From IMG/VR virus record IMGVR_UViG_3300020048_000080: 64,000 nucleotides of DNA; one strand, 5' to 3'. Source of the stretch: a virus. Its lineage: Duplodnaviria; Heunggongvirae; Uroviricota; Caudoviricetes. Below, one piece after another: positions 22,476-26,071 of the stretch. The stretch's first letter is position 1, and every line of letters begins with the position of its first letter. The notes under the pieces were generated by a model, which was not told the DNA's origin, did not search any database, and saw nothing but the letters and a program-made list of their open reading frames with translations. Made by a program: the position numbers and the translations under genes.

Positions 22476-22814
22476 TTGTTTTTTATATATATTAAAAAAT
22501 TAAATTTAATTTTGATAACTGAATTTTTCAATTTTCCAATATATAAAAAAGGTGATTATATTTTATTAAAAAAAATAGCAATAGAAGAGTATTATAAACG
22601 TTATAATTTATATAAATTTGCAAAAATTTCTGAAATATCAGGATATTCAGAAACATCATATGTACTAGAAGCAATATTCAATGACCCTCCTAAAATTATG
22701 AGAAAAATTGTAGGTGAATTTAATATACCAAGAGATCATATAGAGCGAAAATTAAACAAAAGAGAGATAGAAGAATTTGAGGTACAAAAAACAGCAATAA
22801 TGTATAACTTATGA
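22476..22814 (+). CDS. small paralog-family protein, C-terminus ...MYNL
   Basis: First gene of the tandem array; C-terminal '...YNL*' with an ATGA overlap onto the next gene. Confidence 0.35.
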   Translation: MFFIYIKKLNLILITEFFNFPIYKKGDYILLKKIAIEEYYKRYNLYKFAKISEISGYSETSYVLEAIFNDPPKIMRKIVGEFNIPRDHIERKLNKREIEEFEVQKTAIMYNL

Positions 22815-23152
22815 TTACTGAATTTAAAATATTTGAAAAATTAAATATTGGTAAACCAAGAGTTGGTGATTATGTTATAATTCAAACAAATCATAAAGAT
22901 CCCAGACTTATTAATTTTTTTGAGAATACAATAACAAAAATAGTTGGCACAAAAGATTTATTTGGTACTTTGCATTATATAGTATATTTTGATAATATTC
23001 CAGAAGAATTAAGTGAAATATTTGATTCACCTTTTAGAAGTAAAATTTGGAGAACTGAACACCATCACTTTACTATAGAAAACATTAAATATTGGTCTAA
23101 AAATAAAGAAGATTTAGAATACATATTAGCAGCAAATAAATATAATTTATGA
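22811..23152 (+). CDS. KYNL-family small protein (leader MITEFKIFEKL, VGDYVII, YWSKNKEDL, C-terminus ANKYNL)
   Basis: Motifs shared with the other array members. Confidence 0.5.
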   Translation: MITEFKIFEKLNIGKPRVGDYVIIQTNHKDPRLINFFENTITKIVGTKDLFGTLHYIVYFDNIPEELSEIFDSPFRSKIWRTEHHHFTIENIKYWSKNKEDLEYILAANKYNL

Positions 23153-23451
23153 TAACTAAATTTAAAATATATGAATCTATAAATGAAGGTGAGCCTATGG
23201 CTGGTGATTATGTTATTTGTAAACCAAAAAATCGGGGAACCGCATTTCAAAAATATGTTGACGATAATATTGGGAGAATTATGAAGGAATTTAAAGATGA
23301 TACTTATTTTAATGGAAAAAATATAAAAAATTTTTTGGTGAAATTTACAAATCCAACAACTTATGTTTTTAATAGAGATCAGATTCTATATTGGTCTAAA
23401 AATAAAGAAGATATGAAAGATATACAACAAGCAAATAAATATAACTTATGA
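23149..23451 (+). CDS. KYNL-family small protein (MITKFKIYE..., AGDYVIC, YWSKNKEDM, ANKYNL)
   Basis: Family motifs; ATGA overlaps on both sides. Confidence 0.5.
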   Translation: MITKFKIYESINEGEPMAGDYVICKPKNRGTAFQKYVDDNIGRIMKEFKDDTYFNGKNIKNFLVKFTNPTTYVFNRDQILYWSKNKEDMKDIQQANKYNL

Positions 23452-24638
23452 TTACAAAATTTAAAATATTTGAAAATTTATCAATGAAGATTGATTTACC
23501 TGATGATATTTATCAAATCAAAAAAGAATTTGATAAAGCAGGTAAAAAACTTTACGTTGTTGGTGGTGCGGTTAGAGACTTTTATCAGAAAAGAAAACCA
23601 CATGATATTGATTTAGTCACAGATGCTTTACCAGAAGAATCAAAGAAAATATTAAAAGGTAAATTTAATGTATCAGATGAGCAAGGTAAAAGTTTTGGAG
23701 TATTAAGAATATTTACAGAATCAGAACCTGCTGGTTATGAACTTGCAACATTTAGAAAAGATATATCAAAAGGTAGAGATACAAAAGGTGATGCACCAAA
23801 AGTTGAAATCGGAAAACATATCACTATTGAAGATGATGTTAATAGACGTGATTTAACACAAAATGCACTTTTTTATGATATTGATAAAGAAGAAATTGTA
23901 GATTTAGTTGGTGGCATCGAAGACATAGAAAAAAATGTAATCTCAGCCGTTGGGGAGGCTTCAGAGAGATTTATAGAAGATAGGTTGAGAATCTTACGAG
24001 TCTTTAGGTTCGCATCAAGAAGCCTATCTAAAATAAGTGATGCGACAATTGATGCAATCAAGAAAGATAAGAGATTAAGAAATATTTCAAAAATTGATGA
24101 TGTTTCTCAAGAAAGAATAGTTGAAGAATTTGAAAAAGCAGTTGATTGGTCATCTGAACATAAGAAAATTGAATCATTACATTTTTATTTAGAATTACTT
24201 GAACAATATGAAATGTTTAGTGAGATGTTTCCTGGTTTACATATTAATACACATAATATTAATACTTATAACTTACCAATTATATATGCACTTTTATTTA
24301 GAGATAATAATATTGAAAAATTAAGAAGTAAATTAAGAAAATATAAATTTTCAAATAAAACTGCTGATACTGCTTGTTTCTTATTAAGATTAAGAGATTA
24401 CTTATTAGATTTAGATAAAATTCCCGCATTATATAAAGAAAAAGTTAGATTTCATGTTGATAATGAAACTATTGAAGAATTTGCTGATTTATATGACTTG
24501 AATGATAAATATATAAATGCATTCTTAAAATATAAACCAAAAATAAATGCAAAAGAATTTATGTCAGGATTAAAAGATATTGAGATTGGTATGGAAAAGA
24601 AAAGAAGAGAAATAGAAGAATTTAAGAAATTATTATGA
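23448..24638 (+). CDS. tRNA nucleotidyltransferase/poly(A) polymerase family protein (CCA-adding enzyme-like) carrying the family leader MITKFKIFENL
   Basis: Head-domain motif 'LYVVGGAVRDFY...HDIDLVTDALP' (GGxxRD...DxD) from the PolyA_pol / CCA family. The first 11 residues are identical to the array leader. Confidence 0.6.
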   Translation: MITKFKIFENLSMKIDLPDDIYQIKKEFDKAGKKLYVVGGAVRDFYQKRKPHDIDLVTDALPEESKKILKGKFNVSDEQGKSFGVLRIFTESEPAGYELATFRKDISKGRDTKGDAPKVEIGKHITIEDDVNRRDLTQNALFYDIDKEEIVDLVGGIEDIEKNVISAVGEASERFIEDRLRILRVFRFASRSLSKISDATIDAIKKDKRLRNISKIDDVSQERIVEEFEKAVDWSSEHKKIESLHFYLELLEQYEMFSEMFPGLHINTHNINTYNLPIIYALLFRDNNIEKLRSKLRKYKFSNKTADTACFLLRLRDYLLDLDKIPALYKEKVRFHVDNETIEEFADLYDLNDKYINAFLKYKPKINAKEFMSGLKDIEIGMEKKRREIEEFKKLL

Positions 24639-24982
24639 AATATATAAAATTATTTGAATATAAAGATATTTCTCAATTATCAAAAGTTGGAGATATATTT
24701 AAATTGAATGTGAACTCAACTAAAACATTTATTGTTGAGGTTTTAGAAATTACTAAATATGGTCTAACTAAAAATTATGCTATAGATCTTAATATAATTT
24801 TAACTTATAATTTCAAACGAAATAGATGGATGAAATTTACAGATGAATCATCAAAAATTACATGTTTAGCAACATTTATTGATGAACATGGTAAATATTT
24901 AACTGAACAAGATTTAATAGAATTTGGTGATCTTTTAGATGATTATAAAATACAAAAAGATGCAAATAAATATAACTTATGA
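24635..24982 (+). CDS. KYNL-family small protein (MKYIKLFEYK..., VGDIFKL, C-terminus ANKYNL)
   Basis: Family motifs. Confidence 0.5.
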   Translation: MKYIKLFEYKDISQLSKVGDIFKLNVNSTKTFIVEVLEITKYGLTKNYAIDLNIILTYNFKRNRWMKFTDESSKITCLATFIDEHGKYLTEQDLIEFGDLLDDYKIQKDANKYNL

Positions 24983-25518
24983 AATATCTAAAAACATTTG
25001 AAACAAAAGAAAAGATTAGATTATCTATAAATGTTTCTTTATTTCCAAATCACGAAGGACTTAAAGAAAATGAAGAACCAACAACAGGGACATGGACGAC
25101 ATTTTTTGGATATAGTCATATAAAAGAAATTGGACATAAAATTTCCGATATTCTTTTTAGAAAATATTTTGGTACAGATGATCCATGTAAGGATTCACAA
25201 TATGGTCCTTGTAGACCTGAATATGAAACATATCCACAAGAATTGGCAAATTTATTAATATTTATTGGTGAATATGCTAGATTATCAGAAAAAGAAGATG
25301 AGGAAAGAACTTTGGAAAGATCAAAAAAGAAAAAATATTGGAGATATTCAAATGTACCAGCACCAATAGATGATAATGAAGAAGTTGAACTTGTACTATA
25401 CTTTAGTTCAAAAAAAGATGCATTAGATTGGTTAGATTTATTTGAATTTGTTTTAAATAATCCAGAGAAAAGAGATATGATAGAAGATTTTATGGCGGCA
25501 AAAAAATATAACTTATGA
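24979..25518 (+). CDS. KYNL-family protein (MKYLKTFE..., C-terminus AAKKYNL), longer variant
   Basis: Family leader and C-terminus. Confidence 0.5.
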   Translation: MKYLKTFETKEKIRLSINVSLFPNHEGLKENEEPTTGTWTTFFGYSHIKEIGHKISDILFRKYFGTDDPCKDSQYGPCRPEYETYPQELANLLIFIGEYARLSEKEDEERTLERSKKKKYWRYSNVPAPIDDNEEVELVLYFSSKKDALDWLDLFEFVLNNPEKRDMIEDFMAAKKYNL

Positions 25519-25799
25519 AATATCTAAAAACATTTGAAGGTAAATTATATCCACAAATAGGTGATTTTGTTATAGGAGATCCAACTAATTTTACATGGGC
25601 AAAAAATATAATAAAATCAAATATAGGAAAGATTGTAGTAGATTCAAATAAATCAAATAAAGGATTATATTATAAAGTTCTTTATGTTACAGATGTTTAT
25701 TCGGAAACATTCACATTACATGTGAATGAAATTTTATACTGGTCTAAAAATAAAGAAGATTTAGAAATATATATTCAAGTAAATAAATATAATTTATGA
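25515..25799 (+). CDS. KYNL-family small protein (MKYLKTFE, IGDFVIG, YWSKNKEDL, VNKYNL)
   Basis: Family motifs. Confidence 0.5.
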   Translation: MKYLKTFEGKLYPQIGDFVIGDPTNFTWAKNIIKSNIGKIVVDSNKSNKGLYYKVLYVTDVYSETFTLHVNEILYWSKNKEDLEIYIQVNKYNL

Positions 25800-26071
25800 A
25801 ATATCTAAAAACATTTGAAAGAAGATATGAACATAAATATAGATTAGGTGATTATCTTTTAGTTGATTCAGAGAATGACGGTAATAATCAGCCGTGTGTT
25901 GTTATTGAAGAACATGATAGAGGATTAGATGCCGCTAAAGTAAAATTTTCAAATGGAGAAGAATATTGGGCGTGGGAACCTTATATTATTAGAAGATTAA
26001 CATCAGATGAAATTGAAAAATTTGAGAAAGATTTAGAATTAAATTTAACCGCAAAAAAATATAATCTTTGA
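25796..26071 (+). CDS. KYNL-family small protein (MKYLKTFE, LGDYLLV, AKKYNL)
   Basis: Family motifs; last member of the tandem array. Confidence 0.5.
   Translation: MKYLKTFERRYEHKYRLGDYLLVDSENDGNNQPCVVIEEHDRGLDAAKVKFSNGEEYWAWEPYIIRRLTSDEIEKFEKDLELNLTAKKYNL

Follow-up and report, generated by a model that had tools for sequence, protein, structure and literature searches.

The window analysed in this work is the 64,000-nucleotide stretch of the Caudoviricetes record IMGVR_UViG_3300020048_000080 in IMG/VR. It is an AT-rich sequence (G+C about 25%) that carries on its plus strand, at positions 22512-26071, an array of eight consecutive open reading frames (ORFs). Neighbouring ORFs overlap by 4 nt (ATGA) at all seven internal junctions, as a sequence-only reading of this DNA had noticed, and the translation of each array gene is probably coupled to that of the preceding one. 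The same reading had described the locus as a tandem array of eight paralogous small genes, all ending in KYNL. Seven of the eight are indeed small (91-179 amino acids) and end in (K/M)YNL, with KYNL in six and MYNL in the first, but the fourth is a CCA-adding enzyme of 396 amino acids that ends in KKLL, and the bodies of the small proteins proved to be largely unrelated. At the other end the array proteins start with a leader of the form MKY[IL]K.FE or MIT.FK.[FY]E. Four more genes that carry both the leader and the tail are dispersed over the two strands, at exactly the coordinates given before, and the window therefore holds 11 two-tagged members (7 in the array and 4 elsewhere) and not twelve. 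The motifs GDY(V/I) and YWSKNKEDL that had been pointed out in these proteins are present as claimed (Table 1).

The array had been taken to begin at 22476, whereas its first member most likely begins at the TTG codon at 22512. At or just upstream of this start, at 22489-22514, lies a degenerate version of the junction sequence, AAATTTAATTTTGATAAC, which would read KFN-L-stop/ATG and in which TTATGA has become TTTTGA. This suggests that a mutated junction has left member 1 with a TTG start and points to an upstream cassette that has been lost. An alternative genetic code in which TGA is read through was considered and rejected, as the ORFs, including that of the CCA-adding enzyme, are full-length with the standard stop codons.

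The number of tags in the window exceeds chance, because among ORFs of at least 60 amino acids 11 have the [KM]YNL end and 9 the leader, and neither arose in 100 second-order Markov simulations. At the nucleotide level, with up to 2 mismatches allowed, the 15-nt junction sequence AAATATAACTTATGA was found at 10 places, where 2.9 would be expected. The claim of a DNA-conserved junction of about 35 nt held in so far as three junctions share 34-35 of 35 nt over the segment AAATATAACTTATGAAATATCTAAAAACATTTGAA, which spans the tail, the stop/start overlap and the leader; its emphasis on DNA did not, since this identity results mostly from amino acid conservation combined with an extreme AT codon bias. 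Paralogy is detectable among four window members only (those at 22811, 23149, 25515 and 43077), which are 35-46% identical, and the alignment of the remaining members is limited to the tags and the GDY turn.

At least six further window genes have a leader-like N-terminus and no tail. Two genes with a leader alone, that at 37214-37741 on the minus strand and that of the CCA-adding enzyme at 23448-24638 on the plus strand, both end in KKLL (ERLKKLL and EEFKKLL, respectively); this shared end may be a second, weaker type of tail, or a coincidence.

Table 1. Coordinates of the array, of related genes and of the Clp genes in the 64,000-nt window
Feature	Position	Strand	Characteristics
Array member 1	22512-22814	+	TTG start; degenerate leader (M)ITEFFNF; tail MYNL; ATGA overlap with next gene
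Array member 2, 113 aa	22811-23152	+	Leader MITEFKIFE; GDYVI; YWSKNKEDLE; tail ANKYNL; Tudor/SH3-like barrel body
Array member 3, 100 aa	23149-23451	+	Leader MITKFKIYE; tail ANKYNL; body of same subfamily as member 2
CCA-adding enzyme (tRNA nucleotidyltransferase), 396 aa	23448-24638	+	PF01743, E 9e-31; phrog_2244, E 5e-50
Array member, 115 aa	24635-24982	+	Leader MKYIKLFE; tail ANKYNL; body unalignable to core subfamily except for GD turn
35-nt junction (tail, stop/start overlap, leader)	24968-25002	+	Repeated at 25504-25538 (35/35) and 25785-25819 (34/35)
Array member, 179 aa	24979-25518	+	Leader MKYLKTFE; tail AKKYNL; different, Cys-containing body; homologue P0013 72% identical
Array member, 94 aa	25515-25799	+	Leader MKYLKTFE; GDFVI; YWSKNKEDLE; tail VNKYNL
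Last array member, 91 aa	25796-26071	+	Leader MKYLKTFE; GDYLL; tail AKKYNL, coded AAT CTT TGA at its end; no gene downstream
Dispersed member, 112 aa	31894-32232	-	Leader MKTFEGFIE; tail SRKYNL; Cys-rich body; downstream gene convergent, no coupling partner; homologues P0016, P0026
Dispersed member, 99 aa	37762-38061	-	Leader MKYIKKYE; tail AEKYNL; homologues P0008, P0029
Dispersed member, 95 aa	41462-41749	+	Variant leader MKKFFNDFINE; tail TLKYNL
Dispersed monocistronic member, 118 aa	43077-43433	-	Leader MITRFKIFE; core subfamily body; tail AEKYNL, TAA stop; downstream gene convergent
Leader-only gene	16286-16726	-	MKTLKTFE; no tail; no Pfam match
Leader-only gene	20708-21712	-	Leader-like N-terminus; no tail
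Leader-only gene	32229-32834	-	Leader-like N-terminus; no tail
Leader-only gene	34183-34890	-	MKNIKTFE; no tail
Leader-only gene	34903-35280	-	Leader-like N-terminus; no tail
Leader-only gene	37214-37741	-	MKHVRKYE; no KYNL tail; C-terminus KKLL
ClpC-like double AAA+ unfoldase, 847 aa	6383-8926	+	Clp_N + AAA + AAA_2 + D2-small; short coiled-coil linker; GIGF ClpP-docking loop, residues 687-690
True ClpP peptidase	53383-54066	+	PF00574, 256 bits; PHROG protease families

The array is very probably one locus of a very large superfamily of accessory genes, carried by huge phages related to the Mahaphages, in which unrelated bodies lie between two portable tags that are under selection, the genes being arranged in operons with ATGA overlaps whose junctions act as crossover points. 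The earlier observation was partly confirmed, and the interpretation that came with it is partly supported. The scale of the phenomenon was not visible from the window alone, as the superfamily defined by the tags comprises about 2,000 clusters, with bodies that include ankyrin, leucine-rich repeat (LRR) and other types. A profile built from the window members retrieved 29 unnamed metagenome proteins in a word-indexed search and 1,934 clusters at 50% identity (243 of them at E <= 1e-10) in an exhaustive search of public metagenomes. All 1,934 clusters matched end to end, and the homologues of individual members in other metagenomes are full-length. In IMG/VR, 49 tagged loci were found, on contigs of up to 501 kb with a G+C content of about 22%. 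At a locus from a marine assembly in ENA (L052; ERZ19028352 scaffold_615, 29488-49862), both tags are present on about 45 of the 54 genes within 20 kb; two of the start codons there read GTG (VKYLKLYE and VKYIKTFE). In some regions, between roughly one tenth and the majority of the genes are tagged.

The impression that the family had not been described was borne out. A scan of ten array and dispersed proteins found no Pfam or PHROG family for the small two-tagged proteins, the CCA-adding enzyme being the sole match, and the motif strings were absent from the literature consulted, in which papers on marine and other megaphages, on sequences like the T4 capsid-targeting sequence (CTS) and on ankyrin or other multigene families of huge phages describe no such family. 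A scan of GTDB, with one genome per bacterial or archaeal species, returned no relatives, and a tblastn search with a family member against GenBank phages gave no match. A blastn search with the junction gave weak matches only, which led to scattered tag-bearing genes in the phage genomes LR745206 and LR756502, with the leaders MKYLKTFENY, MKYLKKFENF and MKHLRKFEE or the tails KFNL and KFNI. Almost all that is known of huge phages comes from metagenomes, and the majority of their genes lack an annotation; a simple two-ended signature present on about 2,000 clusters would provide a handle on a large share of this dark matter.

The N-terminal tag comprises 8-9 residues of the general form [MK or MITK]-aromatic-x-K-x-aromatic-Glu and occurs in two classes, MKY[IL]K.[FY]E (class 1) and MIT.FK.[FY]E (class 2), and the C-terminal tag comprises 4-6 residues of the form (A/S/T)-(N/K)-K-(Y/F)-N-(L/I). 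The fetched loci contain 159 unique ORFs with a strictly defined leader, and 153 of these (96%) also possess the tail. The true count of tagged genes is higher than this strict figure, since further leader classes, such as MKI.KFNE and MIIKRF..LNE, are seen on looser inspection. When the tags were trimmed off, the 153 proteins fell into 65 BLASTP clusters (46 singletons). Among their bodies, LRR proteins (LRR_4, PF12799, E 4e-18) and ankyrin repeat proteins (PF00023 and PF12796, E 2e-18) were identified above the curated cut-offs of Pfam; others are Tudor/SH3-like, and many belong to no family at all.

Structure prediction agrees with this modular organization. In the AlphaFold model of the protein encoded at 22811-23152, the body, a small beta-barrel with a C-terminal helix, was predicted with a predicted local distance difference test (pLDDT) score of about 94, compared with 58 over residues 1-10 and 64 over the final three. 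The low scores at the termini suggest that the tags are flexible peptides outside the fold. The AlphaFold2 model of the 179-residue member, with a pLDDT of 52, was unusable, and a Foldseek search against viral structures retrieved generic small barrels only (E > 0.003). Two of the fetched loci encode a tagged protein of 218-219 residues (L001, 13982-14641; L006, 13631-14287) in which two barrel-like units (NDIVIC... and GDYVLC...) lie between one leader and one tail, so that bodies can duplicate internally while the tags stay single.

The CCA-adding enzyme provides an example of a leader on a protein of recognizable ancestry. Homology to PF01743 and phrog_2244 begins only at about residue 26-35, and the leader MITKFKIFENLS (MITKFKIFE) forms an N-terminal extension ahead of the ancestral start MKIDLPDD, so that the leader can sit on an enzyme. 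The gene has ATGA overlaps at both ends. Its orthologues in two other loci (L057 and L058; 74% and 58% identity) have kept a diverged leader-like extension (MITRFIKFITEKN and MIATKYTDFLLEN, respectively), and the orthologue in a third (L059; 48% identity) has no such extension.

Clear signs of selection on the tags emerge from the substitutions per codon counted in 26 independent homologous pairs. In the leader (codons 2-8), 0.17 synonymous and 0.15 nonsynonymous substitutions were found, as against 0.07 and 0.54 in the next seven codons, and in the four codons of the tail the values were 0.20 and 0.115, as against 0.11 and 0.42 in the eight codons that precede it. Nonsynonymous differences are 3-4 times rarer in the tags than in their flanks, and synonymous ones accumulate freely. 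Synonymous codons within the tags vary about as they do in the gene bodies (AAG for Lys in 13-15% versus 8%, TAC for Tyr in 20% versus 8% and GAG for Glu in 10% versus 13%), and the amino acid replacements seen are conservative (I/L, F/Y and Y/H). The tail is retained in 46 genes without an adjacent downstream start, most of which stop at TAA, in window genes followed by a convergent gene or by non-coding DNA, and in the last array member, although it has no overlap partner; correspondingly, the leader is retained in first-of-operon and monocistronic genes. In the lineage of the loci L052 and L040, the tail KYNI is followed by one, or rarely two, variable residues, and it is the codon of the extra residue that supplies the A of the ATGA overlap. 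The codon counts, the tail in uncoupled genes and this lineage all show that the peptides themselves are selected. Leaders of identical amino acid sequence differ by 1.60 nt per 24 nt within a locus and by 1.66 nt between loci. Local gene conversion, considered as the source of the DNA identity at the junctions, found weak support: no difference at all was seen in 30% of the leader pairs from one locus and in 16% of those from different loci, and the mean number of differences was the same for both.

The junctions are also the sites at which genes are gained and lost. The colinear loci L001 and L006 are 75-85% identical and differ by insertions and deletions of one whole cassette, the edges of which consist of junction segments of 50-60 nt that align twice, the pattern left by unequal recombination between tag-encoding junctions. 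In T4-type phages, too, genes are reportedly gained and lost in modular fashion by recombination at short conserved boundary sequences, in the form of mobile regulatory PeSL cassettes and of shuffling mediated by CTSs. PeSL cassettes differ in that they consist of an intergenic promoter and a stem-loop, whereas the junctions described here are 4-nt coding overlaps with no intergenic DNA and are under amino acid selection. Within a lineage the form of the tail is uniform: the dialect KYN[LI] is found in the window, L015 and L043, KFN[LI] in L001, L006, L008, L018 and L032, and KYNI plus one residue (G, L, V or I in L052) in L052 and L040. Such lineage-wide dialects would be expected if every copy co-evolved with a single reader in each phage, or if the copies were homogenized.

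As to the phage itself, a megablast search with 10 kb of the window against GenBank phages gave no match, that is, no close DNA relative there. The best matches of the CCA-adding enzyme belong to the uncultured phages LR745206 and LR756502 (634 and 642 kb), and a 600-residue ORF at 10199-12001 matches only LR756501/3 (735 kb, 46% identity over 566 amino acids), LR756502, LR756504, LR745206 and LR756500. On the basis of these protein matches, the genome is related to the Mahaphage clade of 634-735 kb phages. Genomes of this size are the largest of the clade, and their predicted hosts are Bacteroidetes (PMC7162821).

In the reading that we prefer, and to which we assign a probability of roughly one in three, the tags are address labels for a common phage machine, the leader functioning like the CTS of phage T4, which is docked to the prohead and cut after Glu. 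By analogy, the leader would dock the protein onto the assembling prohead core and would then be removed by the prohead protease after the near-invariant Glu, and the tail would represent a second docking or processing element. A precedent for the latter is T4 Alt, a head-borne enzyme that loses both its N- and its C-terminal propeptide to the prohead protease (PMC9026906). It is the sole two-ended cargo signal that was found for comparison; Alt is one single protein rather than a family, no motif is shared at its termini, and the likeness implies no sequence similarity. According to this scenario, the phage would deliver, together with its DNA, a large and fast-changing cocktail of binder proteins into the cell, which would be candidate anti-defence or take-over factors.

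The resemblance between the leader and the T4 CTS, which had been noticed from the sequence, extends to several features. The leader has 8-9 residues compared with 10 in T4, contains two aromatic residues 3-4 positions apart, ends in a near-invariant Glu (83 of the 86 class 1 leaders obtained in an unbiased profile search) and is followed by a polar linker. In T4, the 10 N-terminal residues are sufficient for head targeting, and within the CTS targeting depends on the aromatic residues 4 and 7 and cleavage on residues 8 and 10 (PMC9026906). Cleavage after Glu has been reported for T4, phiKZ and SPN3US, and the T4 internal proteins are otherwise highly diverse (PMC9026906; PMC3012670). Like the leader described here, the CTS of IPI, IPII and IPIII is a short N-terminal peptide on otherwise unrelated small proteins (median of 115 residues for the tagged proteins) that is portable to foreign cargo, in the present case the CCA-adding enzyme, and among related phages its locus is hypervariable (PMC9026906, PMC3012670). 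Targeting peptides that are portable between diverse viral cargo proteins are a known principle; what is notable here is the two-ended design, the scale and the occurrence in the largest known phages.

Several points weigh against this assignment. In the 64-kb window and the fetched loci, no gene was identified for a prohead protease, a scaffold or a capsid protein, the sole protease in the window being a true ClpP, and the ClpC-like/ClpP pair of the window is itself an alternative candidate for the reader. The T4 cleavage rule L/I-x-E fits half of the window leaders (6 of 12) and the class 2 leaders (K-I-F-E), but the third residue before the cut (P3) is L or I in only about 12% of class 1 leaders overall, the others having K, T or Q, which do not fit the rule of phiKZ and SPN3US (S/A/G-x-E) either. 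The tagged genes, about 45 of which lie in a single 20-kb locus, far exceed any known packaged set; there are tens and probably more than 100 of them per genome, compared with 3-5 in T4. Nor are the tagged proteins uniformly basic (median isoelectric point, pI, of 6.2, with 33% above pI 7), and the conserved C-terminal tag has no counterpart in the T4 internal proteins. Finally, the clade is uncultured.

Should the tags prove to be sorting signals, they would delimit the set of cargo or effector proteins that the largest known phages possess, and recombination at the junctions would be the route by which new cargo is recruited. The peptides of 8 and 5 residues could serve as tools to load or target proteins in such phages. 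A broader proposal, which we consider possible but more doubtful than not, is that a two-ended address system unknown until now routes more than 100 hypervariable binders per Mahaphage-type genome, among them ankyrin, LRR and Tudor-like proteins and even an enzyme such as the CCA-adding enzyme, either to the prohead, from which they would be co-injected with the DNA, or to ClpC/ClpP, for which they would act as interchangeable substrate adaptors, with cargo recruited by junction recombination.

The tags may also dock the proteins to some other common partner, either a host hub or each other in a head-to-tail manner, without being a signal for packaging or proteolysis. Flexible terminal short linear motifs under amino acid selection would suit this function, the joint presence of leader and tail in 96% of the cases suggests that they act together, and the existence of lineage dialects suggests that the tags co-evolve with each other or with a single partner. 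No partner has been identified, however, and we know of no likeness of the tags to motifs that bind the clamp, RNA polymerase or the ribosome. Furthermore, the leader occurs alone on the CCA-adding enzyme and on six window genes, so that the tags are separable, and leader class and tail form do not covary within a genome. We regard this alternative as unlikely, though by no means negligible.

Slightly less weight is given to the main rival of the packaging reading, suggested by the window itself, namely the view that the tags are docking or degradation signals for the phage ClpC-like/ClpP system, either timed degrons or tethers that turn binder proteins into substrate adaptors, which would amount to a phage-encoded, adaptor-based system of targeted degradation. 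The window encodes a true ClpP together with an unfoldase that carries a GIGF loop of the ClpP-docking type, and the neighbours of clpP are PhoU_div and histidine-phosphatase genes and not head genes. Recognition signals of Clp proteases are reportedly, in the typical case, short, flexible, terminal peptides, which the low pLDDT of the tags matches, and the adaptor SspB is tethered by a C-terminal peptide that binds ClpX. Ankyrin, LRR and Tudor-like bodies are binder scaffolds, and the 501-kb contig has a ClpC-like gene at a distance of 5 kb from one of its tagged arrays. However, relatives of ClpP and ClpC are present on hundreds of IMG/VR contigs, no specific co-occurrence with the arrays was found, and apart from the one 501-kb contig (ClpC) the large contigs with dense arrays are not among the best 80 ClpP/ClpC matches, a weak test given that the contigs are partial. 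A near-invariant Glu in the leader is not a feature of known N-terminal Clp signals, the extra variable residue after the tail in L052 and L040 disfavours a recognition anchored at the free carboxyl group, and two degrons per protein would be redundant. The tags share with the ssrA-type degrons, the N-terminal motifs recognized by ClpX and the SspB peptide that short flexible terminal peptides link diverse proteins to one AAA+ machine, but they resemble neither the LAA-type tails nor LRVVK, and the tail, although terminal in most lineages, is not so in all of them. Another example of such an architecture is that of the poxvirus ankyrin/PRANC (F-box-like) proteins, large and fast-evolving families in which a variable binder scaffold is combined with a constant terminal module that leads to a common machine, and of the ankyrin expansions of giant viruses. 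The PRANC module is a folded domain of about 30-50 residues on a single type of scaffold, whereas here two peptides of 4-9 residues are found on many scaffolds, in a phage and in overlapping operons.

A different explanation, which we judge improbable, holds that the junction is primarily an RNA or DNA element (for termination-reinitiation, as a start module or as a recombination site) and that the peptides are by-products. A downstream ATG is overlapping or adjacent in 107 of 153 genes, and 101 of these 107 stop at TGA. NTA is the final codon of 109 of 117 genes, the Asn of the tail is encoded by AAC in 43% of cases against a background of 11%, and codon -6 is xCA far above background; these three biases relax in uncoupled genes. 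There is, consequently, a weaker constraint at the RNA level for the ATGA overlap, on top of the selection on the protein, and the cassette insertions and deletions do break at the junctions. Bacteroidetes, the likely hosts, start translation without Shine-Dalgarno sequences, and the phage has a gene for an S1-domain protein of its own; the codon biases at the gene ends fit translational coupling through ATGA in such hosts. The freedom of synonymous changes in the tags, together with the rarity of nonsynonymous ones, disfavours an RNA or DNA element, and the I/L and F/Y exchanges preserve the chemistry and not the nucleotides. The uncoupled genes that keep their tail, the first-of-operon and monocistronic genes that keep their leader, and the KYNI dialect in which the tail is parted from the overlap also speak against this explanation, as does the nearly equal DNA divergence, within and between loci, of leaders with identical amino acids. 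The S1-domain protein mentioned above is encoded at 14285-15451 (plus strand), has 388 residues and contains S1 RNA-binding domains (PF00575, E 8e-23); it may be a phage factor resembling ribosomal protein S1 and may be relevant to the translation of AT-rich mRNAs that lack Shine-Dalgarno sequences.

Quite improbable, too, is that the leader is a translation ramp or nascent-chain sequence that favours the start and early elongation on AT-rich mRNA, with an unrelated role for the tail. Certain N-terminal sequences are said to boost early elongation, and Met-Lys-Tyr-Ile (AUG AAA UAU AUA) resembles them; the leader is moreover found on proteins without a tail, including an enzyme. However, ramp effects are limited to codons 2-5 and would leave the near-invariant aromatic-Glu pair at positions 7-8 unexplained, as well as the second leader class (MITKFKIFE) and the 96% coupling to the tail.

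It is very improbable that the members are an ordinary family of tandem paralogues, or pieces of a single broken gene, in which the termini are merely the most conserved portions of a fold, and a single-fold family was essentially ruled out. Four window members do have identities of 35-46%, and the GDY turn that opens the barrel recurs in many small bodies. Yet the same tags are found on ankyrin, LRR and at least 60 other body clusters, and the trimmed proteins form 65 clusters, the small bodies of which match no Pfam or PHROG family. The structure prediction places the tags outside the fold, each member is an intact ORF from its own start codon to its own stop codon, and individual members have full-length homologues in other metagenomes.

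The accessory genes of the window include those for NAMPT, an adenylosuccinate synthetase, an NAD-dependent DNA ligase, an RNA ligase and an RNase H-like protein, a set that, together with the S1-domain protein, the five tRNA-Leu genes and the Clp pair, is typical of huge phages. The array is followed by a non-coding segment (26072-26397) with a G+C content above that of its surroundings, which corresponds to no Rfam family (best E 0.77) and for which the predicted folding is no better than that of shuffled sequences (z -1.2 to -1.5). A scan for sigma-70 promoters returned 57 sites, not above the 51.8 found in shuffled sequences. The motif TATATAWR is present 4-27 nt upstream of several first-in-operon start codons, of tagged and untagged genes alike, for example upstream of 10199(+), 16200(-), 21712(-), 22459(-), 32834(-), 35280(-), 49050(+) and 62591(+), and similar motifs of the AATATATAAG type precede array starts in L052; this motif is a candidate promoter element of the phage. 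Between 58001 and 60000, the G+C content rises to as much as 0.36, compared with about 0.25, over a gene for a 613-residue SPFH/Band 7 protein (58154-59995), a region that may have been acquired recently. At 62366-63572 on the plus strand, five tRNA-Leu genes with the anticodons TAA (twice), AAG, TAG and CAA form two tight groups around an ORF of 237 amino acids.

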